Shown here one piece after another: positions 1,285 through 12,150 of a stretch of DNA of 12,150 nt. Within the stretch, counting starts at the first letter, position 1. Every line of letters begins with the position of its first letter. This DNA is from a virus. Lineage: Duplodnaviria > Heunggongvirae > Uroviricota > Caudoviricetes. Where the stretch lies: positions 1 to 12,150 of the IMG/VR virus record IMGVR_UViG_2681813004_000020; one strand, written 5' to 3'. Position numbers and translations under genes: made by a program. A model generated the notes under the pieces. The model was not told the origin of the DNA. It did no database searches and saw only the letters and a list, made by a program, of their open reading frames with translations.

Positions 1285-1330
1285 AGGTTGCTCCGGGCTA
1301 TGAAATAGAAAAATGAATCCGTTGAAGCCT

Positions 1331-1420
1331 GCTTTTTTATACTAAGTTGGCATTATAAAAAAGTATTGCTTATCAATTTGTTGCAACGAACAGGTCACTA
1401 TCAGTCAAAATAAAATCATT
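1331..1420. other. attL (B-O-P'): lambda att core plus P' arm with IHF and Int arm-type sites
   Basis: Exact 15-bp core GCTTTTTTATACTAA at 1331-1345; IHF-consensus TATCAATTTGTTG at 1371-1383; arm-type Int sites AGGTCACTAT and CAGTCAAAAT at 1392-1411; int stop follows at 1419. Confidence 0.9.
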
Positions 1421-2492
1421 ATTTGATTTCAATTTTGTCCCACTCCCTGCCTCTGTCATCACGATACTGTGATGCCATGGTGTCCGACTTATGCCCGAGA
1501 AGATGTTGAGCAAACTTATCGCTTATCTGCTTCTCATAGAGTCTTGCAGACAAACTGCGCAACTCGTGAAAGGTCGGCGGATCCCCTTCGAAGGAAAGAC
1601 CTGATGCTTTTCGTGCGCGCATAAAATACCTTGATACTGTGCCGGATGAAAGCGGTTCACGATGAGTAGATGCAATTATGGTTTCTCCGCCAAGAATCTC
1701 TTTGCATTTATCAAGTGTTTCCTTCATTGATATCCCGAGAGCATCAACATGCAATGTTGTAGGGATGGCAATTTTTACGCCTGTTTTGCTTTGCTCGACA
1801 TAAAGATATCCATCTACGATATCAGACCACTTCATTTCGCATAAATCACCAACTCGCTGCCCGGTAACAACAGCCAGCTCCATTGCAAGTCTTAGCCAAC
1901 ATGGTGATGATTCTGCTGCTTGATAAATTTTCAGGTATTCGTCAGCCGTAAGTCTTGATCTCCTTACCTCTGATTTTGCTGCGCGAGTGGCAGCGACCGG
2001 GTTTGTTGTTATATGGCCTTCTTCAGCTATTGCCTCTCGGAATGCATCGCTCAGTGTTGATCTGATTAACTTGGCTGACGCCGCCTTGCCCTCGTCTATG
2101 TATCCACTGAGCATTGCCGCAATTTCTTTTGTGGTGATGTCTTCAAGTGGAGCATCAGGCAGCCCCCTCCTTATTGCTTTAATTTTGCTCATGTAATTTA
2201 TGAGAGTCTTCTGCTTGATTCCTCTGCTGGCGAGGATTTTTTCGTAGCGATCAAGCCATGAATGTAACGTAACAGAATTATCACTGTTGATTCTCGCTGT
2301 CAGAGGCTTGTGTTTGTGTCCTGAAAATAACTCAATGTTGGCCTGTATTGCTTCAGTGATTGCTATCCTCCTGTCTCGGCCTAATCCAAACTCTTTACCC
2401 GTCCTTGGGTCCCTGTAGCAGTAATATCCATTGTTTCTTATATAAAGATTAGGGGGTAAATCCCGGCGCTCATGACTTCGCCTTCTTCCCAT
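1419..2492 (-). CDS. int: Tyrosine integrase, lambda Int type
   Basis: 357-aa ORF starting MGRRRSHERRDLPPNLYIRNNGYYCYRDPRTGKEF, recalled as near-identical to lambda Int; catalytic elements HELR, LLGH and the Tyr in SQYRDD are present; ATG start; adjacent to attL. Confidence 0.95.
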   Translation of the reverse strand: MGRRRSHERRDLPPNLYIRNNGYYCYRDPRTGKEFGLGRDRRIAITEAIQANIELFSGHKHKPLTARINSDNSVTLHSWLDRYEKILASRGIKQKTLINYMSKIKAIRRGLPDAPLEDITTKEIAAMLSGYIDEGKAASAKLIRSTLSDAFREAIAEEGHITTNPVAATRAAKSEVRRSRLTADEYLKIYQAAESSPCWLRLAMELAVVTGQRVGDLCEMKWSDIVDGYLYVEQSKTGVKIAIPTTLHVDALGISMKETLDKCKEILGGETIIASTHREPLSSGTVSRYFMRARKASGLSFEGDPPTFHELRSLSARLYEKQISDKFAQHLLGHKSDTMASQYRDDRGREWDKIEIK

Positions 2493-2688
2493 TTCTGATC
2501 CTCTTCAAAAGGCTACCTGTTACTGGTCGATTTAAGTCAACCTTTACCGCTGATTCGTGGAACAGATACTCTCTTCCATCCTTAACCGGAGGAGGGAATA
2601 TCCTGCATTCGCGCACCCATCGACGAACTGTTTCAAGGCTTCTTGGGCGTCGCTGGCGTGCATTCCACTCCTGAAGTGTCAAGTACAT
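2470..2688 (-). CDS. xis: Excisionase, lambda Xis type
   Basis: 72-aa ORF MYLTLQEWNARQRRPRSLETVRRWVRECRIFPPPV, recalled as matching lambda Xis; overlaps the int start by 23 nt as in lambda. Confidence 0.93.
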   Translation of the reverse strand: MYLTLQEWNARQRRPRSLETVRRWVRECRIFPPPVKDGREYLFHESAVKVDLNRPVTGSLLKRIRNGKKAKS

Positions 2689-2714
2689 CGCAAAGTCTCC
2701 GCAATTACACGCAA
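2665..2714 (-). promoter_or_regulatory. cII-activated pI-type promoter (TTGC-N6-TTGC box) at the xis 5' end
   Basis: Minus-strand TTGCGTGTAATTGC (plus 2701-2714) lies 13 nt upstream of the xis ATG, matching the lambda cII recognition repeat; the implied transcription start falls inside xis, as known for pI. Exact -10 not determined. Confidence 0.55.
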
Positions 2715-2719
2715 GAAAA

Positions 2720-2735
2720 GCCGCATTGATGCGGC
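2720..2735 (-). other. Perfect 7-bp-stem hairpin (GCCGCAT/ATGCGGC) followed by TTTTCTT on the minus strand, just upstream of the cII box; possible weak terminator or RNA processing site
   Basis: Inverted repeat read directly from the sequence; the loop is only 2 nt if fully paired, so terminator function is uncertain. Confidence 0.3.
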
Positions 2736-2794
2736 GATGGTAGGTCTGGATATCATTGAGCCATGAACAGGCCTCATCGAGTGTGAGGCTGTGG

Positions 2795-3139
2795 TTAGTC
2801 CTTTCGTAACTCGCTGATTCTCCTGTAAGTCTCTGGTGCTTTGTTTCCGTGTATCTTCATTTCAGACTTCAACAGAGCAACGAGGGAATCCCATTCGTTG
2901 AGGATGCCTTTGAATGCCGGAACGCGCTTTGCAACCTTGTCGAATGAATCTCTGATTTCTGGAATCTTCTCAACAAGTGCAACGCATCGTCGGAAGTCTG
3001 CTGCGTCATGGGGAGCGCCGAAGTGATGACCATAGATATTCTTTTTCAGGCCACATGCGATTGAGGCAAGAGTTGCGCTACTGATGCCAACATCGCCAGT
3101 CGATTGCCATTTCAAAACCTTCATAGACAAATCTGACAT
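2795..3139 (-). CDS. Hypothetical protein, 114 aa, int/xis-proximal accessory gene
   Basis: ATG at 3139..3137 preceded by GGAGACAAGAA (Shine-Dalgarno GGAG); TAA stop at 2795; no family recognised. Confidence 0.6.
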   Translation of the reverse strand: MSDLSMKVLKWQSTGDVGISSATLASIACGLKKNIYGHHFGAPHDAADFRRCVALVEKIPEIRDSFDKVAKRVPAFKGILNEWDSLVALLKSEMKIHGNKAPETYRRISELRKD

Positions 3140-3167
3140 TTCTTGTCTCCAATAAAAAAAACCTCCA

Positions 3168-3335
3168 TCAGGCGGCTTGGTGTTCTTTCAGTTCTTCAAT
3201 TCGAATATTGGTTACGTCTGCATGTGCTATCTGCGCCCATATCATCCAGTGGTCATAGCAGTCATTGATGTTCTCTGCTTCGATAACTCTGTTGAATGGT
3301 TCTCCATTCCATTCACCTGTGACTCGGAAGTGCAT
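3168..3335 (-). CDS. Hypothetical small protein, 55 aa (MHFRVTGEWNGEPFNRVIEAENINDCYDHWMIWAQIAHADVTNIRIEELKEHQAA)
   Basis: Found by manual translation (absent from the ORF track); ATG at 3335..3333 preceded by GGAGATGATAA; TGA stop at 3170..3168. Confidence 0.5.
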   Translation of the reverse strand: MHFRVTGEWNGEPFNRVIEAENINDCYDHWMIWAQIAHADVTNIRIEELKEHQAA

Positions 3336-3373
3336 TTATCATCTCCATAAAACAAAATCCGCCGTAGCGAGTT

Positions 3374-3404
3374 CAGATAAAAGAAATCCCCGCGAGTGCG
3401 AGGA
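3374..3404 (-). terminator. Intrinsic terminator candidate directly after the ASCH-protein stop
   Basis: Minus strand TCCTCGC-ACTC-GCGGGGA (7-bp stem with one G-U pair, 4-nt loop; plus 3387-3404) followed by TTTCTTTTATCTG (plus 3374-3386). Confidence 0.5.
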
Positions 3405-3407
3405 TTG

Positions 3408-3692
3408 TTATTCATTGCCGATATTCACCTTTATCGCGAACACCTTTACCGGTTTATCACCGAAGTGCGGATGTGTGATTGTCTTGATTTCATATCCGTC
3501 ATACGGAACATCAATTCTGCGGCTGGAATCGTCGCGCTTCGGATATCCCTTTGTGATAATCAGGCGGTCATACTCCCGGAACATAATTCGCTTATTCCAA
3601 TAGTCATTACACAGGCGATACTCTTCCGTTTTCTCTCCTCGAATCATGGCATCGAAGTATTCACCTTTGACGGCAAGTTGTAGGTTAGCCAC
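3408..3692 (-). CDS. ASCH-domain protein, 94 aa
   Basis: N-terminal LQLAVKGEYFDAMIRGEKTEEYR contains the ASCH signature GxKxxExR (G19-K21-E24-R26); GTG start at 3692..3690 preceded by AGGAGG with 7-nt spacing; overlaps the upstream stop by 8 nt. Confidence 0.7.
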   Translation of the reverse strand: MANLQLAVKGEYFDAMIRGEKTEEYRLCNDYWNKRIMFREYDRLIITKGYPKRDDSSRRIDVPYDGYEIKTITHPHFGDKPVKVFAIKVNIGNE

Positions 3693-3987
3693 GGTTAACC
3701 TCCTGCGGAGTAGCCTTTACAAGCACTGGTGCAAATCCATCTTCATTAAGGTTATGAATATAGACTTCTGTTCTCCTGCGCTCTTCAACGTTTAATATTG
3801 TTTCTGGATCATAAACCCATACTTTCATTCGACTATTCCATGAAGAAATCGCTTCAGATCTAGTTCGTTTTTCTGGTCCTTGGGCACCACATTTGCATGA
3901 CACATAGCGCATTTTCCCTCTGATACTGAATGAGTATCCGATGTTAAGCACAGTGGAACCACAGAATGGGCAGCGATATAGATTCAT
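3685..3987 (-). CDS. Lar-family-like zinc-ribbon protein (restriction alleviation family) with a ~45-aa C-terminal extension, 100 aa
   Basis: N-terminal LYRCPFCGSTVL...VSCKCGAQGPEKRTRSEAISSWNSR matches the recalled Lar-family pattern CPFCG...C-x-CGA-x-GP...EAI-x-x-WN-x-R; ATG preceded by AAGGTGGA; ATGA stop/start overlap with the upstream gene. Confidence 0.55.
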   Translation of the reverse strand: MNLYRCPFCGSTVLNIGYSFSIRGKMRYVSCKCGAQGPEKRTRSEAISSWNSRMKVWVYDPETILNVEERRRTEVYIHNLNEDGFAPVLVKATPQEVNRG

Positions 3988-4601
3988 AAATCATCCACCT
4001 TAGGCGCAGCTGAGACAGCAACATTCCAGAACTCAGAAAACATATTGTATGCACCAGATAGATTGGAAGTAGCATACCCTCCAAGCTCACTTCTAATCTG
4101 AACGGCTCTCATCATTTCCGGGGTTAACTCCTTCGGCACCATAACCCAACCATCCGGAGTTACCGGAGAGTTGCCACCGGGAATATTTTCCGGAATATTT
4201 TGTTGTGCGTTTTGTGGTTGTTCTGATTTACCCTGAAGCATGGCGGCGCGGCAGGCGTTCCAGCCAGCTGTTCGCCCAAGCGCGTAAACTTCAGATGGAT
4301 CAAGATAATCAATGTCATGCCCGTCCTCATCGTCGTTCTCAGGTAATGCAGCAGGTACTACCGGTACTGGCGGAGCGGCGTAGACCTCAATAATTCCATT
4401 ATCAATAGGCCATTCTCCATCCTTGAGGTAGTCACTTGTGCCGTCAACTTGCTGTTCTGCAATGTGGAATGCACCTATTGGTTTTGCTTCCAGCGATGCC
4501 AGAGCAATCCGTGCCAGTTCCATTTGTTCGCCACTAGTAAGTCCGTTATCAAGCGGGGATTTAATGAACAATTCGATACGTTCTTTAGTGATAGTGCTCA
4601 T
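3984..4601 (-). CDS. Hypothetical protein, 205 aa
   Basis: Start set to the internal ATG at 4601..4599 (MSTITKERIELF...), which has an AGGAG SD 7 nt upstream and lies 1 nt after the upstream TGA stop; the 33-codon extension in the ORF track overlaps the neighbouring gene and has no SD. Confidence 0.6.
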   Translation of the reverse strand: MSTITKERIELFIKSPLDNGLTSGEQMELARIALASLEAKPIGAFHIAEQQVDGTSDYLKDGEWPIDNGIIEVYAAPPVPVVPAALPENDDEDGHDIDYLDPSEVYALGRTAGWNACRAAMLQGKSEQPQNAQQNIPENIPGGNSPVTPDGWVMVPKELTPEMMRAVQIRSELGGYATSNLSGAYNMFSEFWNVAVSAAPKVDDL

Positions 4602-4602
4602 A

Positions 4603-5160
4603 TCACTCTCCTTTGATGCGAATGCCAGCTGCGCTTGCTGATTCTTCATATGCGCGTTTAGCAGCGTTAAGGATTGCTGCCAGTGGCGTATAGCCGCCAT
4701 CCATTCGGATTGTGTTGTGGATGCCAGCCATTGTGTCGCGCAATTTGCTGTGGCTAGCAGACAGTTCTGCTATGCACTTCTCTGCGGCATCGGCTCGATC
4801 TTTTTCACGCTGGAACATTTTGTGAGTGCGGTCTATAGCTTCGATTCGTGCCGCTGATGTCTTCTGCACGGCTTCAAGCTCAACACGCAGCTTCCCAACC
4901 GTAAGAGCAATATCCTCGTTCTTCTGGTCGCGGCGTTTGATGTATTGCTGGTTTCTTTCCCGTTCATCCAGTAGTGCCAGCACGGTTTCTGGCCCGGTCA
5001 GAAATTTGAAGGCGTTGAGCGCATCAATATCCACACCGTAATCCTTAAGTTCCTGTTCAGTTAACAAATCATCATCAACTGGCAACATTAACAGGCGTTC
5101 CATTGCCGGAATTGCACGCTCTGCCGCCTCACGCAGTGCCTGATAGTCAATCTTGCTCAT
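4603..5160 (-). CDS. ea22: Ea22-like protein, 185 aa
   Basis: Internal LLDERERNQQYIKRRDQKNEDIALTVGKLRVELE and C-terminal AGIRIKGE resemble lambda Ea22 as recalled; AAAGGAG SD 8 nt upstream; ATGA overlap with the upstream stop. Confidence 0.5.
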   Translation of the reverse strand: MSKIDYQALREAAERAIPAMERLLMLPVDDDLLTEQELKDYGVDIDALNAFKFLTGPETVLALLDERERNQQYIKRRDQKNEDIALTVGKLRVELEAVQKTSAARIEAIDRTHKMFQREKDRADAAEKCIAELSASHSKLRDTMAGIHNTIRMDGGYTPLAAILNAAKRAYEESASAAGIRIKGE

Positions 5161-5714
5161 TGGATGACTCCTTTACGAAGCTGTTCGGCGATATCTTCGA
5201 GAATGCCATCAGAGAATGAACGGTCAAAATCGCCTTCCGGCGCATTGGCCATAAACTCAGTAGAGGTAAGAATCATCCGGGCAATATCAGCGGCGTTCTT
5301 CGCAGTATCATCAATAAAACCAGCTTCCCAGGCAGCCAGCATTCTGTTCGCCACAAAGTAAGCGCCCTCCTTGCGTGCTTCAGTCTTCACTTCAGCCAGA
5401 AAAGCATCGGTGGCTGGGGTTTCAGTAATATCATCTTCCCATTCGCTAAACTCCTCACGACAAAAGTCATTAAATTCCTTCTCAGATTGCTTAAGCGAGG
5501 AATTTTCAGCAGCCATCTTCGCGCATTTAGCCTCAAGGTTATCAATCGTGATTCCAGCAGAACGACACTCCCGCAACGCCGTTTCTAGTTTTGATTCAAG
5601 TTCACCGAACTTACGGACAAGATATTCATCGTTTGTTTCGTCAACCTTTAAATCACTTGGGATGCATTTACCTTTCAGAAAACCATCCATCTCAATTAGT
5701 GTCATTTGTTTCAT
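5157..5714 (-). CDS. Hypothetical acidic protein, 185 aa (start at [12 protein letters not shown])
   Basis: ORF track starts at a GTG (5732..5730); the first ATG (5714..5712) forms an ATGA overlap with the upstream stop and is preferred; a second ATG lies at 5705. Confidence 0.55.
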
Positions 5715-5875
5715 TTCTTCCCACTCCGCCACATCGCATTCAGATATTTGTTGTCATTAACAGAACCGAAACTCTTTCTCTTAAGCAATTCCTCTCTCGA
5801 TGGCATTGGCTTTGCGCGTTGGCGAATAATCATTTCTGCCGGAAGAATGCCGGGATTGTATGCAAGTCCTCTCAT
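5711..5875 (-). CDS. Hypothetical small protein, 54 aa ([54 protein letters not shown])
   Basis: ATG at 5875..5873 preceded by GAGGAA; an in-frame upstream ATG at 5893 would give 60 aa; start lies inside copy 1 of the 109-bp tandem duplication. Confidence 0.45.
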
Positions 5876-6049
5876 GGTAAATTCCTCAGTCATTACTGAT
5901 AGCGCCATAGCGTGAGCGGTAATTACGCAGGCGCGGGTCAATTTCTGCCGGAAGAATGCCGGGATTGTATGCAAGTCCTCTCATGGTAAATTCCTCAGTC
6001 ATTACTGATAGCGCCATAGCGTGAGCGGTAATTACGCAGGCGCGGGTCA
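5832..6049. repeat. Perfect tandem duplication, 2 x 109 bp (5832-5940 and 5941-6049), with 5-bp microhomology ATTTC continuing at 6050-6054
   Basis: Base-by-base comparison: the two units are identical; the flanks differ (C at 5831, AGGG at 6055). Confidence 0.95.
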
Positions 6050-6288
6050 ATTTCAGGGAAGTGGGTATATGTGGCTTTGCGGAATGGTCGGATTGATGTC
6101 TGGTAAATTCGCTCGCGTTCTTCTTTCTCTGCAAGCCATATACAATGGCGAAATTCCTTTTCCTCTTTCGTTTCCTGCGGTAGCGACATTATCCGATCGT
6201 AGTTTTTTCTGAATTTATCCAGCACCTCCGATACGGAATTGCCGGAACAGCGGCGCGCGTCATCCGCACCATACAGAGGCGCTGGCAT
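5995..6288 (-). CDS. Hypothetical protein A1, 97 aa (MPAPLYGADDARRCSGNSVSEVL...), paralog of the 8937-9119 gene
   Basis: ATG at 6288 preceded by CAGGAGAAAAC; stop lies inside copy 2 of the 109-bp duplication; first 30 nt identical to the paralog. Confidence 0.6.
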   Translation of the reverse strand: MPAPLYGADDARRCSGNSVSEVLDKFRKNYDRIMSLPQETKEEKEFRHCIWLAEKEERERIYQTSIRPFRKATYTHFPEIDPRLRNYRSRYGAISND

Positions 6289-6304
6289 GGTTTTCTCCTG
6301 TTGA

Positions 6305-6853
6305 TTATTTAGCTAACTTTTTCCAGATCGCTGAAACGTATTTGGCTTGGTGAATGGCATCATCAAGCGCGTTGTGGCGAGTTCCTTTGAATGGCATATC
6401 TCGCTTAGGGTCTAATCCTATTACCTTCCCAAGTTCGACGATTGTTCTTACGTCGCGGTCATTCCACCACTGCCACGGAACTGGCTGCCCTGTCAGCGAA
6501 TAACTGTTTCGGAGAATAACGCAGTCAAATGATGCTCCATTCCCCCAAACCTGAACGAATTTGTGGTTAGCGTTCTTTATGATGAATTCAGATAACCATG
6601 AAAGAGCCGTTGAAAGCTCCTGAGTGTTGCTGGTTAGCGATTTTCTGGCTTCTTCACTCTGTTCCAGCCACCATAAAATCGTTGAAGCGTCAGGACGCGC
6701 CCGATATCGCATTGATGACTCAAGCGAGATATTTACCGAGAACTCTTCTCCTGTTTCTCCGGTATTCGGGTCAAAGAATACCGCCCCAATAGAAATAACT
6801 GGCGCATATGGCCCGTTGCCCATTGTTTCAAGGTCAACCATTAAGTGATTCAT
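6305..6853 (-). CDS. DnaQ-like DEDDh 3'-5' exonuclease, 182 aa
   Basis: Exo I motif VDLETMG near the N-terminus and H-x4-D motif HNALDDA near the C-terminus; AAGGA SD; lies next to ssb as in many prophage recombination modules. Confidence 0.8.
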   Translation of the reverse strand: MNHLMVDLETMGNGPYAPVISIGAVFFDPNTGETGEEFSVNISLESSMRYRARPDASTILWWLEQSEEARKSLTSNTQELSTALSWLSEFIIKNANHKFVQVWGNGASFDCVILRNSYSLTGQPVPWQWWNDRDVRTIVELGKVIGLDPKRDMPFKGTRHNALDDAIHQAKYVSAIWKKLAK

Positions 6854-6861
6854 GTAAGTCC

Positions 6862-7368
6862 TTAAATTGCGTGAATAGCGTGACGAGGGAAGGGGAGAGT
6901 TACTGGTGCAAAGGGTATATCGTCGTCAAAATCCATCGGAGGTTCGTTGTGTTGTGCTGGTGATGATTGCTGCTGTGGCTTCTGTGATTGCCTGCTGGCT
7001 GCTTGTTGTTTGCTGTCGCCAATTCCGCCAAGCATTTGCATCACGCCATTAATTCCGACATGAACCTCGGTTGTGTAACGGTCTTGCCCTGACTGGTCTT
7101 TCCACTTTCTGGTTCTCAGCATTCCCTCGAAATAAATCTGATCACCTTTTTTCACATACTGCCCCACGACCTCAGCCAGTTTCCCGGATACAGCAACACG
7201 ATGCCATTCAGTCAATTCCTTTTGCTCGCCAGTATTTTTATCTCGCCATTGTTCTGACGTGGCTATTGTCAGGTTAGCGAACGCTGTACCTGATGGTGAG
7301 TATCGAACTTCCGGGTCTTGTCCTACCCGACCAAGGATAATCACCTTATTTACGCCTCTGCTTGCCAT
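6862..7368 (-). CDS. ssb: Single-stranded DNA-binding protein (SSB) with an atypical 15-aa extension after the DDDIPF tip
   Basis: N-terminal [23 protein letters not shown]...[11 protein letters not shown] matches the E. coli SSB OB fold as recalled; Gln/Pro-rich linker; [11 protein letters not shown], then the frame continues [15 protein letters not shown] before TAA. Confidence 0.9.
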
Positions 7369-8076
7369 TTATGCCGCCTGTTTTAGTTCGTTAACTCTGA
7401 TGTTCATTACCTGAACGCATTTAGCCTGCGCCTCCTCATTGCCAGCCATTAATTGCCAGTCACGCTGATAACGCTCGATGAGTTTTTTCTTGTCAGTTTC
7501 TGTTGACGCATAATCGCTGAAGTCTTTCAGGATTTGTTCGCAGTCAACCGATGGAGATTTCTGGTTGGTATTTTCTGGTGATGGTTTGTTATCTGATGCT
7601 GGTATTGCCCATCCCGGCAGCGATGGAGGGAGCCAGTAAAATCCTGTTCCATCCTTGAGTTTTGCCCTGTGCCATCCCTGCTTTTTATCGAGAGATGTTT
7701 GTGCGAAACCTTCCTCAAGGTTATACAGATACCGACCGATTCCCCACTGAACGGCAGCGCGCTTCATTGCACCGGAACGACCACCTTTGACGGCTTCTAC
7801 CTGCGTGTTTTCAGCAGCATCCCATTTGGTTACCCATTCGGAATCAATCTTTATTGATATGCCGCATTCAACGCCGCCGTTGTTGGGAATATCGCGGTAT
7901 TCATTGCGCCATCCTGCTTTGCCGCAAACATCGTCCAGGCGTTTCATGATTGCCCGGTTCGTTACATAAGCCAGCACCATAGCCCACACTTTGCCATCGC
8001 GTGTTTTACCGCTTTGCTGTATTCGCCATTCGATATCTTCAGGGCTGAATGGCTCATCGAATTTATTCAAATCCAT
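7369..8076 (-). CDS. Rad52-type single-strand annealing protein, 235 aa
   Basis: Motif GAMKRAAVQWGIGRYLYNL resembles the Rad52 signature GLKRALRSFGNALG; GAGGTGA SD; directly upstream of ssb. Confidence 0.65.
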   Translation of the reverse strand: MDLNKFDEPFSPEDIEWRIQQSGKTRDGKVWAMVLAYVTNRAIMKRLDDVCGKAGWRNEYRDIPNNGGVECGISIKIDSEWVTKWDAAENTQVEAVKGGRSGAMKRAAVQWGIGRYLYNLEEGFAQTSLDKKQGWHRAKLKDGTGFYWLPPSLPGWAIPASDNKPSPENTNQKSPSVDCEQILKDFSDYASTETDKKKLIERYQRDWQLMAGNEEAQAKCVQVMNIRVNELKQAA

Positions 8077-8084
8077 AATTCACC

Positions 8085-8255
8085 TCAGAATGGACACGGC
8101 CCAAGGAAATAACGCTGATTTAATACTTCAACTCGGGACAAATTAAGGCATACCCGCATTCCTTCGCGGTCGCCATTATGGCGATACCAGAGAGCTTTCT
8201 GCGTGTACATGCGTCTCTGTAACTTGCTCTCCTTCACTGTGGTTGCAAGTGACAT
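8085..8255 (-). CDS. Hypothetical small protein, 56 aa (MSLATTVKESKLQRRMYTQKALWYRHNGDREGMRVCLNLSRVEVLNQRYFLGPCPF), paralog of the 10416-10604 gene
   Basis: Manual translation; GAAGGAGATATTC-ATG (strong SD); stop overlaps the SD of the Rad52-type gene; aligns over its length with the 62-aa protein in the other module (shared L-x-R, A-x-W/Y-x-R-x-x-GD, CL, N-x-R-x-FL, terminal PF). Confidence 0.55.
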   Translation of the reverse strand: MSLATTVKESKLQRRMYTQKALWYRHNGDREGMRVCLNLSRVEVLNQRYFLGPCPF

Positions 8256-8334
8256 GAATATCTCCTTCGTTACCGATTAATTCTTTCATCTGACGAATGA
8301 ATTCTTCGTCTGACCAGTTATCTGTAAAACTCAT
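8176..8334 (-). CDS. Alternative small ORF, 52 aa (MSFTDNWSDEEFIRQMKELIGNEGDIHVTCNHSEGEQVTETHVHAESSLVSP), overlapping the 56-aa gene in another frame
   Basis: ATG forms an ATGA overlap with the kil-like stop, mirroring the junction in the other module, but has a poor SD and overlaps the better-supported 56-aa gene by 80 nt. Confidence 0.2.
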   Translation of the reverse strand: MSFTDNWSDEEFIRQMKELIGNEGDIHVTCNHSEGEQVTETHVHAESSLVSP

Positions 8335-8483
8335 TTCCTGCGATACCACGGATGGTTGATAGCTGATTTCATCGCTTTATTTGCTTCAAGCCACATTTTT
8401 GAATCACCAATAAATCTGGCTATTACTGCTTTGTTCTGTGCAGCACGAAGCATCTGGTGATTGATGGCTATTTCATTGCGCAT
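8331..8483 (-). CDS. Kil-like small protein (paralog), 50 aa
   Basis: MRNEIAINHQMLRAAQNKAVIARFIGDSKMWLEANKAMK... aligns with the other module's Kil (IATFIGDEKMFREAVEA versus IARFIGDSKMWLEANKA); GGAGG SD 5 nt upstream; start overlaps the 3' end of the cIII-like gene. Confidence 0.6.
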   Translation of the reverse strand: MRNEIAINHQMLRAAQNKAVIARFIGDSKMWLEANKAMKSAINHPWYRRK

Positions 8484-8602
8484 AACGCCTCCAGTTGTTT
8501 CTTTGCTGCTCTGATTAATTGTTTAACTCGGCGTGATAATTCAGATTCGTGCGGGTAGAAAGCGGACATGACGCCGCTACCCGCGAGCTGAAAGTGCATC
8601 AT
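8468..8602 (-). CDS. CIII-like small protein (divergent paralog), 44 aa
   Basis: MMHFQLAGSGVMSAFYPHESELSRRVKQLIRAAKKQL parallels CIII (AGxx...SESLLERITRKLRDGWKRL); TAAGGAG SD 5 nt upstream; immediately downstream of repeat copy 1; same cIII-then-overlapping-kil arrangement. Confidence 0.6.
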   Translation of the reverse strand: MMHFQLAGSGVMSAFYPHESELSRRVKQLIRAAKKQLEALCAMK

Positions 8603-8664
8603 GGGTAACTCCTTATATTTGATTGCATAACGAAAACGCCTCGAGTGAAGCGTTATTGGTATGC

Positions 8665-8692
8665 ATATAAAAAAGCCCTCACACTGGAGGGC
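8665..8692 (-). terminator. Intrinsic terminator inside repeat copy 1
   Basis: Minus strand GCCCTC-CAGTGT-GAGGGC followed by TTTTTTATAT; a second weaker hairpin AACGCTTC-ACTC-GAGGCGTT then TTCGTT lies at plus 8635-8654. Confidence 0.6.
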
Positions 8693-8785
8693 AAAGAAGA
8701 TTTCCAATAATCAGAACAAGTCGGCTCCTGTTTAGTTACGAGCGACATTGCTCACATAGCAGACTCGCAAATCTGCTATAGGTGC

Positions 8786-8944
8786 TTATTCGCATCGCAT
8801 GACAACATCAAATTTTTCGAGATTACTTTGTCGCAACAATCCTTCTTCTACGCGGTCAGCTTTTCTATAATTATCAAATTCGAAATGTTTAATTACTTCT
8901 TTCGTTTCTCGCTCTATAACTTCAACAATGTATTTCTTATTCAT
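8786..8944 (-). CDS. Hypothetical small protein, 52 aa (MNKKYIVEVIERETKEVIKHFEFDNYRKADRVEEGLLRQSNLEKFDVVMRCE), copy 1
   Basis: Manual translation; ATG overlaps the stop of the upstream gene (GATGAATAA); weak SD; duplicated exactly at 11027-11185. Confidence 0.4.
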   Translation of the reverse strand: MNKKYIVEVIERETKEVIKHFEFDNYRKADRVEEGLLRQSNLEKFDVVMRCE

Positions 8945-9119
8945 CGTTCTCATCTTTTAACGCGAGTTGTATATCGCGTCGGTACATCCGTTCTGCTTTT
9001 GTTTCTGGTGGCAGATCAATAAACGTGTCGAAAATGTTTTTGATATTTTCCAGCACCTCCGCCTTGGAGCTACCGGAGCAATTGCGCGGGTCATCCGCAC
9101 CATACAGAGGCGCTGGCAT
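8937..9119 (-). CDS. Hypothetical protein A2, 60 aa (MPAPLYGADDPRNCSGSSKAEVL...), paralog of the 5995-6288 gene
   Basis: ATG at 9119; first 30 nt identical to A1, then diverging; TAA stop overlaps the start of the 52-aa ORF. Confidence 0.55.
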   Translation of the reverse strand: MPAPLYGADDPRNCSGSSKAEVLENIKNIFDTFIDLPPETKAERMYRRDIQLALKDENDE

Positions 9120-9142
9120 AATGGGAGCCTTATTTTCAGTAA

Positions 9143-9730
9143 TCAGAAAGGAGGGTAATCGTTCTGGCTGTAACCATAATCATCTGCATGATTCTGGCTT
9201 ACGTTTTTAGAGCGATTGTCTTTATCTTTGAGATTGGCAACCATGTTGGCGATAGTTTCTGGTTGCTTGCCTTCTGCCTTTTCTTTAAGGGTTTGACCTG
9301 TTTGTGCAATAAACGGGATGCGTATTTCCATCTGGTAGCTGTCTGCGCCAGTCTTTTTGTTTGTGGTTAATACTTTCTGGAGCACTAACCCGATTTTCTT
9401 TCCATGAAATTCAGGTGCAACAAATTTACTGGCGGAAACCATATGCTGCGTTAATTGTCCAATCCCGGCACACCCCATCATGGCGTGAACGACATTTGCG
9501 CCAAATTTGTTTTCCGTGCCGTCATTTTTCTGAACACAGACGCTAAGATATTGGATTTTACGTCCGTCGTCGGATTCGCCAGAAAACTCAATAAATTTGG
9601 CTCCTTTTTCTGATTGCTTTAGTTCTGCTTCAGTAATGGTAATGATATGAGCACCAGTTTCGTTAATAAAACCACCTTGCCCTGCGGTCAGTGCTGCTTC
9701 TTCGTTATAAGTAAAAATCACGTTGCTCAT
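9143..9730 (-). CDS. Putative cognate ssDNA-binding partner of Sak4 (DUF669-like?), 195 aa, with an SSB-like C-terminal tail DYPPF
   Basis: ATGA overlap with the Sak4 stop; C-terminus ...HADDYGYSQNDYPPF resembles the acidic SSB tip DDDIPF; family assignment by context and tail only. Confidence 0.5.
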   Translation of the reverse strand: MSNVIFTYNEEAALTAGQGGFINETGAHIITITEAELKQSEKGAKFIEFSGESDDGRKIQYLSVCVQKNDGTENKFGANVVHAMMGCAGIGQLTQHMVSASKFVAPEFHGKKIGLVLQKVLTTNKKTGADSYQMEIRIPFIAQTGQTLKEKAEGKQPETIANMVANLKDKDNRSKNVSQNHADDYGYSQNDYPPF

Positions 9731-10407
9731 GCGGCGTTTTCCTTAATTTGATGAACATTATTGATGCCGTAGTAATCACAAACAGTGGCATCGACGAAAG
9801 AGAGATCGTTATCAATCTCATTGGAATCAAACATTCCCATTGGGGATTTAACAGTGTCTGCACCGTTGTTTTTTGTGGTGAAAAAGAACTGGTCATCACG
9901 GGTAAGGGTGCGAAGAACTATAGTAAACATGCCTTCGACAGTGATTTTCTCGTCCAGCATTTTGCCGATAGTCTTCATTTTCACACGCCCCATAGGAGTT
10001 TCTTCGGTGTGCGCAAGAAAATAGACTCTCAGGTCATCAGGCGCATCCTGCGCAGCCTTAATGACCTCCCATGCGTGACGGCCTATCTCAGTAAATTTAT
10101 CAAACGATTTTTCTTCTGAGCGGCGCATAAACTCATTGCTCATCACATACTGGAAGTCATCAACAATAACGATTCTTTTCCCGTATTCGTGAGCACGCTT
10201 AATTACGGCAACTATTACGTCCCATTTGTCAGTGGTAACTACGGTTCCTTTTTTTGCTCTGGCATCCCATGCAAGCCAGTCTTTTGATTTAAATGGTAGC
10301 GGCTTGCCTATTGGTTTTATAAGTATTGCTTCCTCTGGATTGATATTTCTCATGCTGGTTGATTTTCCGGTGCCAGACTCACCGAGTATTAATGTCGCAG
10401 TTCCCAT
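9727..10407 (-). CDS. Sak4-like RecA-core P-loop ATPase (AAA_24-type phage recombination protein), 226 aa
   Basis: Walker A GESGTGKS at residues 9-16, Walker B-like IVIVDD; size and position downstream of kil, where lambda has its Red recombination genes; GAGG SD. Confidence 0.7.
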   Translation of the reverse strand: MGTATLILGESGTGKSTSMRNINPEEAILIKPIGKPLPFKSKDWLAWDARAKKGTVVTTDKWDVIVAVIKRAHEYGKRIVIVDDFQYVMSNEFMRRSEEKSFDKFTEIGRHAWEVIKAAQDAPDDLRVYFLAHTEETPMGRVKMKTIGKMLDEKITVEGMFTIVLRTLTRDDQFFFTTKNNGADTVKSPMGMFDSNEIDNDLSFVDATVCDYYGINNVHQIKENAA

Positions 10408-10415
10408 AATTTGCC

Positions 10416-10604
10416 TCAGAATGGTAATTCGGATGGGGAGGAAAGAAACTCGCGCTCATTCATGCGCTCTCTTTGTGCCTGCCATAAACAAAGTTGTTTC
10501 TTTGATTTATCTCCCGCTTTACGCCAGTAACGAGCCTCAGCAATGTGATATTCTCTTTTTAATCGACTTAACTCTGGAGTTTTCGCCAGTTCTACCGGAA
10601 TCAT
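10416..10604 (-). CDS. Hypothetical small protein, 62 aa (MIPVELAKTPELSRLKREYHIAEARYWRKAGDKSKKQLCLWQAQRERMNEREFLSSPSELPF)
   Basis: Internal ATG with GGAGG SD and an ATGA overlap with the kil stop; paralogous to the 56-aa protein at 8085-8255. Confidence 0.5.
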   Translation of the reverse strand: MIPVELAKTPELSRLKREYHIAEARYWRKAGDKSKKQLCLWQAQRERMNEREFLSSPSELPF

Positions 10605-10714
10605 TTTGACCTCCATTTCCTGTAGGCTTCGACGGCCTCACGAAACATCTTTTCATCGCCAATAAAAGTGGCGATAGTGAATTTAGTCTGGATAGCCATA
10701 AGTGTTTTATCCAT
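10601..10714 (-). CDS. kil: Kil (FtsZ-targeting host-killing peptide), 37 aa
   Basis: MDKTLMAIQTKFTIATFIGDEKMFREAVEAYRKWRSK; ATG overlaps the last codons of cIII as in lambda; the ORF-track version includes an unsupported N-terminal extension. Confidence 0.6.
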   Translation of the reverse strand: MDKTLMAIQTKFTIATFIGDEKMFREAVEAYRKWRSK

Positions 10715-10847
10715 TTTTTGGAACTCCTGGCTGATTAAGTATGTCGATAAGGCGTTTCCATCCGTCACGTAATTTACGTGTGATTCGCTCAAGTAAAGAT
10801 TCGGAAGGGCAGCCAGCAACAGGCCACCCTGCAATGGCATATTGCAT
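10707..10847 (-). CDS. cIII: CIII (FtsH/HflB protease inhibitor), lambda type, 46 aa
   Basis: MQYAIAGWPVAGCPSESLLERITRKLRDGWKRLIDILNQPGVPKNG matches lambda CIII as recalled over its whole length; AAGGAG SD 7 nt upstream; lambda CIII is recalled as about 8 residues longer. Confidence 0.8.
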   Translation of the reverse strand: MQYAIAGWPVAGCPSESLLERITRKLRDGWKRLIDILNQPGVPKNG

Positions 10848-10905
10848 GGTGTGCTCCTTATTTATACATAACGAAAACGCCTCGAGTGAAGCGTTATTGG
10901 TATGC

Positions 10906-10933
10906 ATATAAAAAAGCCCTCACACTGGAGGGC
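10906..10933 (-). terminator. Intrinsic terminator inside repeat copy 2
   Basis: Same GCCCTC-CAGTGT-GAGGGC plus U-tract as in copy 1. Confidence 0.6.
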
Positions 10934-11026
10934 AAAGAAGATTTCCAATAATCAGAACAAGTCGGCTCCTGTTTAGTTACGAGCGACATTGCTCACATAG
11001 CAGACTCGCAAATCTGCTATAGGTGC

Positions 11027-11185
11027 TTATTCGCATCGCATGACAACATCAAATTTTTCGAGATTACTTTGTCGCAACAATCCTTCTTCTACGCGGTCAG
11101 CTTTTCTATAATTATCAAATTCGAAATGTTTAATTACTTCTTTCGTTTCTCGCTCTATAACTTCAACAATGTATTTCTTATTCAT
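11027..11185 (-). CDS. Hypothetical small protein, 52 aa, copy 2 (one extra in-frame ATG upstream)
   Basis: Identical to 8786-8944; here preceded by GGGGAAGA, and the ATG overlaps the stop of the 98-aa gene. Confidence 0.4.
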   Translation of the reverse strand: MNKKYIVEVIERETKEVIKHFEFDNYRKADRVEEGLLRQSNLEKFDVVMRCE

Positions 11186-11481
11186 CATTCTTCCCCAAGA
11201 GCTTTTCTGATTGCTGCAAGACCTTTATTAACAGCTCCATACCATTCTGGATATGTTGTCTTTGTTCTATTTTTGGTTTGCTTAAGTAATAACTGAAGTG
11301 CTTCGAGAAGGTCAGGTGCTGCCGCTATTAGATTGGCATCTTCAATGCATTGAACTTCCTCACAGATTGCAATATACGAACGCCAGCCTGCGCCATTTTC
11401 AAGTGAGTCTGCCTGGATGATTTTAATCTCATCGCCATCCATCATTATTTCCCACTTACCTTCAGTACCTTTAAATTCCAT
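11185..11481 (-). CDS. Hypothetical protein, 98 aa
   Basis: ATG at 11481 preceded by AGAGGCTAAC; acidic N-terminal half; no family recognised. Confidence 0.6.
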   Translation of the reverse strand: MEFKGTEGKWEIMMDGDEIKIIQADSLENGAGWRSYIAICEEVQCIEDANLIAAAPDLLEALQLLLKQTKNRTKTTYPEWYGAVNKGLAAIRKALGEE

Positions 11482-11492
11482 GTTAGCCTCTG

Positions 11493-11520
11493 TTGTTTAT
11501 GCCAAAAATAAAGGCCGACT
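11493..11520 (-). terminator. Intrinsic terminator (tL1-like position) overlapping the stop of the 107-aa gene
   Basis: Minus strand AAGGCCG-AATAGT-CGGCCTT (7-bp stem) followed by ATTTTTGG. Confidence 0.6.
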
Positions 11521-11842
11521 ATTCGGCCTTATCTACATTCCTGAACCAAACGCAGATCGGACCGTCTTCTGTATCGTGAATCGAACCGACAAACCATCCT
11601 TCTCCATCTGGCATGCTTGGCTCCCATCCACTGATGTTTTGATTCCCATCTTCAAAATACGCGTCAATTACCGTTTGATTGTTGTCGTTTTCCATTTCAA
11701 CAATTGATGATTCAATGCCATGCTGCTTGCAGAAAGATCTGAACTCATCAGCTGAAATTACCTCTCTATCCCCAAACAGGTTGGCGTATTCTGGGTGCGT
11801 CCAGTAGCCATCCTCGCTTCGCTCTACTACTAATGCTTCCAT
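11519..11842 (-). CDS. Highly acidic Trp-rich protein of unknown function, 107 aa, first gene after N
   Basis: ATG at 11842 preceded by GAGGTGAGAT; about 24 Asp/Glu against 6 Lys/Arg; four Trp; no family recognised. Confidence 0.65.
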   Translation of the reverse strand: MEALVVERSEDGYWTHPEYANLFGDREVISADEFRSFCKQHGIESSIVEMENDNNQTVIDAYFEDGNQNISGWEPSMPDGEGWFVGSIHDTEDGPICVWFRNVDKAE

Positions 11843-11850
11843 ATCTCACC

Positions 11851-12150
11851 TCAAATAAGTGGTTTGCTGCCTAATTTCATTTTCTGGCGACCAACACAAG
11901 TCACACCCATTTCACTGCGTGGCTTGCGGTAGTAAATACGGTTCTGTTTACGCTCTACTTCTTCTGCCTTCTTGCAGCGAAGGCTTCCGAGTGATGCTGC
12001 TTTATCTGCTCTGACGCAACCAGAGAGCTTTAGCGCAATTTTTCGCGCCAGTCGCTGCTCTTGCATTGCCTGTTCACGTTGAGCCTGTCTGCGTGCTCTG
12101 CGGCGATTTCTGGCGTTATCGTCAGCCAGATATGTAATGACTACTGTCAT
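11851..12150 (-). CDS. N: N-like transcription antitermination protein (phage 21-type C-terminus); the ATG sits exactly at the window edge, so the true start may lie further upstream
   Basis: Arg-rich motif NARNRRRARRQAQREQ near the N-terminus; C-terminus RKPRSEMGVTCVGRQKMKLGSKPLI parallels lambda N ...SKPGERGITCSGRQKIKGKSIPLI; position at the head of the leftward operon. Confidence 0.8.
   Translation of the reverse strand: MTVVITYLADDNARNRRRARRQAQREQAMQEQRLARKIALKLSGCVRADKAASLGSLRCKKAEEVERKQNRIYYRKPRSEMGVTCVGRQKMKLGSKPLI

Follow-up and report, generated by a model that had tools for sequence, protein, structure and literature searches.

The stretch of DNA analysed here (the window, 12,150 bp, from the draft contig AOTC01000251.1) carries two cIII-kil-recombination modules, each next to a copy of one 320-bp repeat, and raises the question of how a single prophage came to hold both. 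The whole window was found to be lambdoid prophage of E. coli, otherwise ordinary, lying at attλ on the ybhC side, and every gene in it is on the minus strand.

The repeat pair and the two modules

The two copies of the repeat, R1 (8626–8945) and R2 (10867–11186), are identical at 320 of 320 positions and spaced 2241 bp apart, and the 150-bp flanks on either side share only 24–26% identity, such that the boundaries are sharp. A pair of this kind is beyond the reach of chance. The first-pass annotation of this DNA had described identical 320-bp repeats, each with a 52-codon ORF, an inverted repeat and a terminator, and all of these were located in R1 and R2. It had missed that R is composite: its 128-bp linker is widespread, its 192-bp ORF rarer. 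In both copies the putative tL-type terminator reads GCCCTCCAGTGTGAGGGC followed by TTTTTTAT, a G+C-rich hairpin and a T run; the predicted RNA fold of the linker terminator gave z = -5.2, and the first hairpin is the putative terminator in HK97's own annotation.

10867–11186, minus strand: R2, the first copy in the direction of transcription, 100% identical to sibling L030
8626–8945, minus strand: R1, contiguous with resident sequence in the siblings
11027–11185 (R2) and 8786–8944 (R1), minus strand: orf52, 52 codons, phrog_6949, function unknown
about 10997–11023 (R2) and about 8756–8782 (R1), minus strand: inverted repeat of 8–10 bp
10916–10933 and 10876–10895 (R2), 8675–8692 and 8635–8654 (R1), minus strand: terminator-like hairpins
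10867–10994, minus strand: the 128-bp linker in R2, a putative tL-type terminator region upstream of cIII and probably the homologous anchor of the insertion

The usual order of the pL (early-left) operon is an N-like gene, a 107-aa ORF, orf98, R (orf52 and the terminator linker), HK022-type cIII, kil, a Rad52-type annealing protein, SSB, exonuclease and abc2. In the window this order is followed through R1, and R2 leads instead to λ-type cIII and kil and to Sak4, in agreement with the architecture that had been claimed after each copy. The resident genes are as follows.

11185–11481, minus strand: orf98, PF27050 Phage_P22_Y8K6 family, resident and upstream of R, with last bases GAAGAA that supply the microhomology at joint J2
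8468–8602, minus strand: HK022/HK97-type cIII, 44 aa, phrog_550, DNA 98.9–100% identical to HK022, HK97 and HK106
8331–8483, minus strand: HK022/HK97-type kil, 50 aa, PF06301, overlapping cIII
8085–8255, minus strand: small protein, 56 aa, phrog_1723, a paralogue of that at 10416–10604 (19 of 56 residues identical)
7369–8076, minus strand: Rad52/Rad22-family single-strand annealing protein, 235 aa, PF04098 (E = 5e-26), phrog_1097
6862–7368, minus strand: canonical SSB, 168 aa, PF00436, with an annotated homologue
6305–6853, minus strand: 3'-5' exonuclease, Rv2179c-like, 182 aa, PF16473 (E = 4e-73)
5995–6288, minus strand: full-length abc2, 97 aa, PF11043 positions 1–97 of 97

This module is of Rad52 type, with the annealing protein accompanied by neighbouring SSB, exonuclease and abc2 genes. 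The additional DNA, segment A, lies between R2 and R1.

8947–10866, minus strand: segment A, HK620-type early-left DNA running from the λ-type cIII leader through cIII, kil, a small-protein gene, sak4 and a DUF669 ssb to codon 57 of abc2
10802–10860, minus strand: cIII thermoregulator RNA (Rfam RF01804), leader and start of λ-type cIII, 88.5 bits against a gathering score of 50, E = 3e-21
10707–10847, minus strand: λ-type cIII, 46 aa, PF02061, with an annotated homologue
10601–10714, minus strand: λ-type kil, 37 aa, PF06301, overlapping cIII
10416–10604, minus strand: small protein, 62 aa, phrog_1723, occupying the hkaM position of HK620 (module layout from PMC5928155)
9727–10407, minus strand: Sak4-like core-only RecA-type annealing ATPase, 226 aa, PF13479 AAA_24 (30.2 bits against a cut-off of 27), phrog_2872 'Sak4-like ssDNA annealing protein' (E = 3.9e-108, full length)
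9143–9730, minus strand: DUF669 atypical SSB, 195 aa, phrog_743 SSB (E = 5.9e-67), with homologues annotated DUF669
8937–9119, minus strand: truncated abc2 (Abc2'), PF11043 profile positions 1–59 of 97

The HK022-type cIII leader gave no match to RF01804 at E ≤ 1 with the covariance model, and the DUF669 SSB gave none to Pfam at E ≤ 0.01. SSBs of the DUF669 type are the partner that stimulates Sak4, a function shown for HK620 only (PMC5928155). Segment A thus has the Sak4-family ATPase and the adjacent DUF669 SSB of an HK620-type module, while its downstream abc2 is not intact: Abc2' consists of 57 native codons followed by Asn-Asp-Glu-stop, derived from the junction base and R1, and the parental abc2 continues differently past codon 57. 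This 60-aa ORF, an anti-RecBCD abc2 cut at codon 57, had escaped the first reading of the sequence. The first 30 nt of the full-length abc2 are identical to positions 9090–9119 of abc2', which creates a second direct-repeat pair with a spacing of 2831 bp.

Parental sequences and distribution of the arrangement

The same prophage was found on nine sibling contigs (five NCBI drafts and four metagenome scaffolds), which were retrieved via the rare 185-aa protein P0032, share the ybhC/attλ site and are 99.87–100% identical to the window in the overlap. Each of the nine has R once and the Rad52-SSB-exonuclease-Abc2 module only, and segment A is absent from all of them. Sibling L030 matches positions 1–5945, 5941–8950 and 10867–12150 at 99.95–100% identity, the sole differences there being a 3-bp insertion, the junction base 8946 and a 109-bp duplication. 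With the exception of base 8946, the backbone has no base substitution relative to the siblings. Besides the insertion, AOTC01000251.1 has three private structural changes: 109 bp are perfectly duplicated in tandem, int has gained a duplicated GAA (3 bp), and a copy of IS26 has inserted. The contig ends inside the IS26 copy, 227 bp past the window.

Segment A is identical at 1920 of 1920 positions to the E. coli prophage L016 (GenBank accession number GCA_027274325.1), which has the intact order cIII-kil-62aa-Sak4-DUF669-abc2(98 aa)-DUF2737 at an attachment site other than that of the window. The search for single-module parents proposed in the first-pass annotation returned both types, the donor at 100% and the resident at 99.95–100%, and these of its claims stood: the modules are alternative versions, each of which occurs singly in other lambdoid phages, and the event is recent, there being no substitution either between backbone and siblings or between insert and donor-type prophage. 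The "module" is not a single unit of exchange, since λ-type cIII-kil is joined to Rad52 in two other prophages (L021 and L022).

The 128-bp linker is 100% identical in donor-type L016, resident-type L030 and HK97, and L016 and L030 share exactly these 128 bp at 100% and diverge on both sides. It was present in 28 of 28 related loci, in single copy in each. Of the 5426 complete E. coli genomes, 2244 had a match to R but just 90 a full-length one, and a single genome among these 90 has this exact R sequence.

Neither the 5426 complete E. coli genomes nor the 50,697 phage records contained a case of the two modules side by side, the best coverage of positions 7369–10407 being 59%, and the exact Sak4 and Rad52 proteins occurred in single-module contexts in 20 of 20 cases. 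A search of about 15 billion proteins placed Abc2', which spans joint J2, on a single contig, listed by NCBI only. The other private features of the contig are likewise listed by NCBI only, which makes absence from Logan uninformative. A 23-mer across J2 had no match in three public collections (viral, metagenome and species-representative genomes). An old arrangement of two recombinases that selection maintains, gene conversion preventing the repeats from diverging, would suit the fact that both annealing systems are intact ORFs; however, the nine single-module siblings, the genome and phage searches, the 20 single-module contexts and the lack of substitutions relative to single-module relatives all speak against it, and we regard it as scarcely credible. 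The siblings and the same searches also dispose of the possibility, raised at the outset, that relatives routinely carry both modules as an old stable arrangement.

The two joints and the proposed insertion

The two ends of segment A are of different nature. One joint falls within the 128-bp terminator linker that is identical in donor and resident. The other is the following.

8945–8950, minus strand: joint J2, donor ...GATGAGAA, C at 8946, then resident GATGAATAAG...

At J2 the donor goes on with GGACC... and resident orf98 finishes in ...GAAGAA|T, where the window has GAGAA-C-GATGAATAAG. Four bases, AGAA, make up the microhomology of abc2 with the last bases of orf98, the probability of at least four matching bases at a given joint being about 0.4%, and base 8946 matches neither parent. 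The window lacks 70 bp of donor abc2, those from codon 57 up to the shared 3' block. Tandem duplication by unequal homologous crossover was considered and rejected, as J2 is not in homology, the flanks are 24–26% identical and only AGAA is common.

It had been proposed that recombination at the conserved linker fixed the allelic modules of two phages in tandem. This holds for one joint: the linker is conserved and exactly common to donor and resident types, and the adjacency of R2 and λ-type cIII lies within it. The second joint (8945/8946) does not conform, as the adjacency of abc2' and R1 lies outside homologous sequence, cuts abc2 and shows a 4-bp microhomology, and all 1284 bp of the right flank match the resident at 100% rather than the donor. 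Moreover, where a sequence occurs in single copy in each genome, homologous exchange there can only swap modules, and linker recombination therefore cannot yield a tandem. Unequal homologous recombination at the linker is thus very improbable.

Judged from its sequence, the pattern is that of a homology-anchored illegitimate insertion with target duplication, having one joint in perfect homology, one at microhomology and a traceable, distinct donor. Insertion of a 1.9-kb foreign segment with duplication of 320 resident bp fits better than the joining of two parental modules. All components are of known types. The reading that we favour, as probable but well short of certain, is that a 1,920-bp HK620-type segment was recently put into a single-module lambdoid prophage by template switching or homology-facilitated illegitimate recombination. 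A growing or invading strand would have left the resident inside the 128-bp linker common to the donor, the donor would have been copied from the λ-type cIII leader through abc2 codon 57, and the strand would then have re-entered the resident template at AGAA, at the end of orf98 and 320 bp behind the exit point, to copy R a second time. Such a switch, with re-entry 320 bp back, would account for the resident sequence of both R copies, the truncation of abc2 and the presence of homology at a single joint; the route is read from the product alone.

An assembly or library artefact would have to be envisaged differently, with two separate lambdoid prophages, one of Rad52 type at attλ and one of Sak4 type elsewhere, and with assembly, gap closing or chimeric library molecules threading the Sak4 segment as a loop on the shared repeat, the tandem being absent from the cell. 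Several observations are consistent with this. The tandem is private to one draft contig across the collections searched, each parent has a match at 100% identity, as the mixing of reads from co-resident prophages would produce, and identical copies of R, in a sequence that a single one of the 90 genomes with full-length R has exactly, are expected of a collapsed short-read repeat node used twice. Poor assembly could also explain the perfect 109-bp tandem duplication and the 3-bp duplication within the same 12 kb, and a contig break in IS26 is typical of short-read assembly. However, a false joint of this origin would lie at a repeat or a k-mer-sized overlap, whereas at J2 a unique gene, broken off at abc2 codon 57, runs into the start of R over 4 bp and one untemplated base. 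Graph and overlap assemblers need shared k-mers or some tens of overlapping bases to make a join, so J2 must exist in the reads, and given J2 the loop (orf98 to R, R to A to R, R to B) has a single linear solution. A mis-threaded path would, in addition, have retained the 70 bp of donor abc2 that are missing here, the duplicated 109 bp differ in extent from the block of about 125 bp common to the two prophage types and so are not a collapsed node, and the window contains no Ns. On balance an artefact is unlikely, although it keeps appreciable weight. We give an even chance to the stronger statement that the window holds a genuine, just-formed module-exchange intermediate between two lambdoid prophages, its two parental types still recognisable at 100% identity, produced by a switch in the linker and a microhomology joint and flanked by two direct-repeat pairs.

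Relation to known systems and predicted behaviour

Homology-facilitated illegitimate recombination and template-switch (MMBIR-like) templated insertion are processes of the bacterial transformation and replication-restart literature. The window resembles their products in having one 128-bp anchor at 100% identity, one 4-bp joint, foreign DNA between the two and duplication of the recipient at the point of re-entry. It differs in that the partners are two prophage or phage genomes and not transforming DNA, in that one base is untemplated, and in that the product alone is observed.

Segment A has the gene order and families of the HK620 module (hkaM, sak4/hkaL, ssb/hkaK = DUF669 and abc2/hkaJ; Hutinet et al. 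2018, PMC5928155), and its DNA is 97–100% identical to this module as carried by many E. coli prophages and Stx phages. Instead of standing alone, segment A lies upstream of a second complete recombination module and its abc2 is cut after codon 57. With the early-left regions of HK97, HK106 and HK022, positions 8400–8753 of the window share 98.9–100% identity, including the annotated putative terminator, but HK97 has Erf in the place of the Rad52-type protein. From the sibling attλ prophages the window differs by the insertion and its other private changes alone.

Where mosaic segments bear traces of homologous recombination, these are in most cases confined to a single flank (De Paepe et al. 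2014, PMC3945230), and the event in the window is likewise an exchange between temperate or defective lambdoid genomes with a trace of homology on one flank. The published mosaics are replacements seen long afterwards, whereas the window holds an addition that keeps both alternatives and both duplicated flanks. On relaxed homologous versus illegitimate recombination in lambdoid mosaicism, that paper cites Clark et al. 2001 and Martinsohn et al. 2008. If the proposed insertion is real, the window would be a natural case of mosaics forming in two steps, insertion and then resolution, and of mosaic joints for which homology on one side suffices.

With N antitermination, cIII, kil and orf52 would each be expressed from two copies in the operon, together with two complete annealing systems and both full-length and truncated Abc2. 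The structure is expected to be metastable, and deletion between one or other repeat pair would give back the old phage of Rad52 type or create a new one of Sak4 type. Recombination between R1 and R2 would remove 2241 bp, as had been predicted, and the product would be the sibling form, the other private changes apart. Recombination between abc2' and abc2, which share 30 identical nt and then about 65% identity, would remove 2831 bp and leave the Sak4 module only.

Gene content of the repeats and of the two modules

The window covers the left end of a lambdoid prophage that occupies attλ next to ybhC, and an exact-protein look-up placed it in the draft whole-genome shotgun contig AOTC01000251.1 (36,774 bp; assembly GCA_001447405.1). 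All phage genes are encoded on the minus strand, so transcription of the early-left (pL) operon runs from right to left. Two copies of a repeat unit, R2 (10867-11186) and R1 (8626-8945), are identical at 320 of 320 positions with a spacing of 2241 bp, and their boundaries are sharp because the 150 bases on each side are only 24-26% identical between copies. The perfect direct repeats described in the first-pass annotation were thus borne out, and annotation of each copy recovered the 52-codon ORF, inverted repeat and terminator that it had listed.

Features of the region, from right to left
Each copy of R, minus strand: 52-codon ORF, phrog_6949, exact protein on at least 1000 contigs
Each copy of R, minus strand: short inverted repeat
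Each copy of R, minus strand: G+C-rich hairpin with a T run, putative terminator in the HK97 annotation
Each copy of R, minus strand: second hairpin
10802-10860, minus strand: cIII thermoregulator (Rfam), 88.5 bits
10707-10847, minus strand: λ-type cIII, first gene after R2
R2 module, after λ-type cIII, minus strand: kil, then a 62-aa phrog_1723 protein
R2 module, minus strand: Sak4-like ATPase, Pfam AAA_24, phrog_2872 (E = 4e-108)
R2 module, after Sak4, minus strand: DUF669-type SSB, phrog_743
8937-9119, minus strand: Abc2', 60-aa ORF matching only positions 1-59 of the 97-position Abc2 anti-RecBCD profile
After R1, minus strand: HK022/HK97-type cIII and kil, DNA 98.9-100% identical to HK022, HK97 and HK106
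R1 module, after kil, minus strand: 56-aa phrog_1723 paralogue
R1 module, minus strand: Rad52/Rad22-family annealing protein
R1 module, after the Rad52-type gene, minus strand: SSB
R1 module, after SSB, minus strand: Rv2179c-like 3'-5' exonuclease
End of R1 module, minus strand: full-length abc2
2470-2688, minus strand: xis
1419-2492, minus strand: int

The order and content of the genes had been described correctly in the first-pass annotation, which missed the truncated abc2. The R2 module is of the hkaM-sak4-ssb-abc2 type known from HK620, where SSB stimulates Sak4 annealing (PMC5928155), but unlike in HK620 its abc2 is cut. Judged by amino acid identity (cIII 13/41, Kil 17/37, small protein 19/56, Abc2 31/60), the paired proteins of the two modules are distant paralogues. 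An Rfam search found no known RNA family within R, the sole match being the thermoregulator next to R2; the leader of the HK022-type cIII (approximately 8560-8625) gave no thermoregulator match even at E <= 1, whereas the λ-type leader matches strongly, and the two cIII genes therefore probably differ in translational control. A mobile cassette formed by R and segment A (the Sak4-type insert, 8947-10866) was considered and dropped, as it contains no gene for an integrase, transposase or nuclease.

The int gene has a 3-bp tandem duplication at 2022-2024 (minus-strand GAA), reading GAAGAA instead of GAA, which gives the integrase one extra Glu (357 aa vs 356); the exact 357-aa protein, WP_058101006.1, is on the source contig only.

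Parental types and distribution of the modules

A rare 185-aa protein, P0032 (window 5157-5714), led to nine further contigs, five of them NCBI drafts and four metagenome scaffolds. Those reaching far enough contain the same prophage beside ybhC, and all nine display one R, one abc2-DUF2737 junction or both, with the Rad52 module only, which refutes the suggestion that related prophages might routinely carry both modules. In comparison with the longest sibling, L030, window 1-5945 is identical bar three extra bases, 5941-8950 is identical bar base 8946, and 10867-12150 is identical. Segment A (1,920 bases) is 100% identical to L016, a prophage of E. coli GCA_027274325.1 with a different attachment site and an intact Sak4 module, located next to an exonuclease I gene. 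The linker part of R, exactly 128 bp long, is 100% identical between L016 and L030, which are unrelated on either side of it.

In three metagenome-derived siblings (L032 901-1962, L035 5963-7024, L037 2286-3347) the SSB and the 3'-5' exonuclease were called as a single 353-aa ORF (PF00436 and PF16473), with a one-gap difference from the window within this stretch; the single ORF reflects either a genuine fusion of the two genes or a frameshift error.

The repeat consists of two parts, the 128-bp linker adjoining cIII and an ORF-bearing remainder. The linker is present once in each of 28 related loci (28/28). Matches to R occur in 2244 of the 5426 complete E. coli genomes, but only 90 of these have the full 320 bp including the ORF. 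Among the 90, one, E. coli E21845/O/A (L008 9001-9320), has the exact R of the window, and the copies in the others are 0.6-2% diverged. This strain was rejected as a parent, since it differs in the cIII/kil region and has a Rad52 module of only 92.6% identity; an identical R next to such a module indicates that R moves between backgrounds as a unit.

The two alternative modules recognized in the first-pass annotation each occur singly in other E. coli prophages. A Sak4 module whose abc2 is intact is frequent in these and in Stx phages, the Rad52 module occurs for example in strain PapM-32-1 at the same attachment site, and the junction of R with HK022-type cIII was found in 24 complete genomes. 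All 20 genomic contexts examined for the exact Sak4 or Rad52 protein had a single module. The two modules were adjacent in none of the 5426 complete E. coli genomes and 50,697 phage records, any one of which covers 59% of window 7369-10407 at best.

In L021 and L022, which are among these 20 contexts, λ-type cIII-kil and the 62-aa gene are joined directly to the Rad52-type gene, so that cIII-kil and the recombinase genes reassort independently; the unit of exchange is thus smaller than the module of the first-pass annotation, and the module itself is divisible.

Joints and origin of the tandem structure

The joint that links R2 with the leader of the λ-type cIII falls at the margin of the 128-bp block common to L016 and L030 and requires only homologous exchange or strand invasion at the linker. 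The other joint, J2, between abc2' and R1 at 8945/8946, is of a different kind. On the minus strand, the donor abc2 reads ...AAAGATGAGAA/GGACC, the end of the resident gene orf98, upstream of R, reads ...GGGGAAGAA/TGATGAATAAG, and the window reads ...AAAGATGAGAA-C-GATGAATAAG. The partners have only the 4 bp AGAA in common, and the C at 8946 agrees with neither parent. As a result of J2, abc2 has lost everything after codon 57, and its reading frame closes with Asn-Asp-Glu-stop within R1. R1 and R2 are each the same as the resident R, which is notable because just one of the 90 genomes with a full-length R has this exact sequence.

Fixation of the two modules in tandem by recombination at the linker, as previously proposed, does not account for this structure, since it would swap the modules rather than stack them and J2 lies outside homologous sequence. 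It is reasonably probable that the structure is a natural recombinant, and its product matches the outcome expected of a template switch or of homology-facilitated illegitimate recombination, the most likely mechanism. A strand that was copying the operon of the resident would change to the donor within the 128-bp linker, copy the donor as far as abc2 codon 57, return to the resident template at AGAA in the end of orf98, 320 bp behind the point of departure, and copy R a second time. Such a switch would explain why the resident R is present twice, why abc2 is cut, why homology is one-sided and why donor sequence is absent to the right of R2; we infer both the sequence of steps and the replicative character of the switch. 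The one-sided homology also fits the finding that, in most lambdoid mosaics where homologous recombination has left detectable traces, a trace is present on a single flank (PMC3945230).

A perfect 109-bp tandem duplication was also noted at 5832-6049 (units 5832-5940 and 5941-6049), the duplicated stretch running from the 3' end of abc2 through a 10-bp spacer into the first 44 nt of the DUF2737 gene. The duplication is associated with a 5-bp microhomology, GAAAT (period-109 identity run of 114 nt), and creates a 32-aa chimeric ORF, WP_187640473.1. The unit is single in the siblings (n = 9, each informative at R, at the abc2-DUF2737 junction or at both). An earlier model of ours, in which a Rad52-type segment entered a Sak4-type backbone with J2 and this duplication as the ends of one event, was rejected because the siblings have a Rad52-type backbone on both sides at 100% identity. 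A second reason was that the 109-bp unit is better explained by a 5-bp microhomology within resident sequence than by a donor/resident joint, and does not match the block that donor and resident share.

That the tandem structure is an artefact is considered rather unlikely, although several observations point that way: it is private to one draft assembly, two parental types are each matched at 100%, the R copies are perfectly identical, and several private structural differences are accompanied by no base substitution save the junction base. An exact look-up among approximately 15 billion proteins placed Abc2' and the 32-aa chimeric ORF each on a single contig, the source; a J2-spanning query against complete E. 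coli genomes and phage records, and a J2 23-mer against viral, metagenome and species-representative genome contigs, gave no match beyond the source contig. However, J2 is in unique sequence, with a 4-bp overlap and an untemplated base, and is not made by overlap or k-mer graphs; 70 bp of donor abc2 are absent, which a mis-threaded path would retain; and the 109-bp unit is not the same stretch as the block common to both prophage types. Absence from the Logan assemblies is uninformative, because the private integrase variant of the contig is likewise listed from NCBI only; the reads of the source strain are probably absent from that collection.

Predicted behaviour and significance

All parts are of known families; what is new, if confirmed, is the arrangement, a recent one-sided-homology insertion with two alternative recombination modules in tandem between perfect repeats. 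To our knowledge, published mosaics are old replacements with joints blurred by later exchanges. If real, this is a fresh product, with parents at 100% and both alternative modules and both duplicated flanks still present. Whether lambdoid modules are shuffled by recombination at short conserved sequences or by random illegitimate joining and selection is debated (PMC3945230); here a conserved 128-bp linker would hold one joint and a microhomology of 4 bp the other, so that one-sided homology would suffice, and exchange could go through a two-module intermediate later resolved by deletion. The phage would also be a testable case of two different annealing systems in one genome, Sak4+SSB and Rad52-type+SSB+exonuclease, along with two genes each for cIII and kil. 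Should the structure be artefactual, it would serve as a warning that perfect repeats seen in draft assemblies of prophage regions need read support before a biological reading.

Recombination between the copies of R should remove 2241 bp, the deletion size that had been forecast and that agrees with the measured spacing, and would regenerate the sibling arrangement. The abc2' and abc2 sequences are collinear and in frame, with the first 30 nt identical, 65% identity over 174 nt and a spacing of 2831 bp; recombination between them would drop R1 and the Rad52 module, and the resulting phage would be of the Sak4 type with an uninterrupted abc2. Divergence of this order is much better tolerated by phage annealing proteins than by host recombination (PMC3945230). 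In the cryo-EM structures of RecBCD-Abc2, residues 6-52 of Abc2 (3-66 with PpiB) form the ordered, RecC-bound part (PMC9836394). As Abc2' retains residues 1-57, it might still bind RecC, while Pro68, the PpiB site (PMC9836394), falls beyond the cut.

The source contig stops 227 bp right of the window, and its final 96 nt (L007 1-96; 131-227 bp beyond window position 12150 on the right) belong to an end of IS26 and match it at 100% in thousands of records. The match to the sibling prophages ends 131 bp upstream of the N-like gene. The IS26 copy, which explains the stop of the contig at that point, appears, in this strain alone, to separate N from the pL/nutL region, and may cripple early-left expression.
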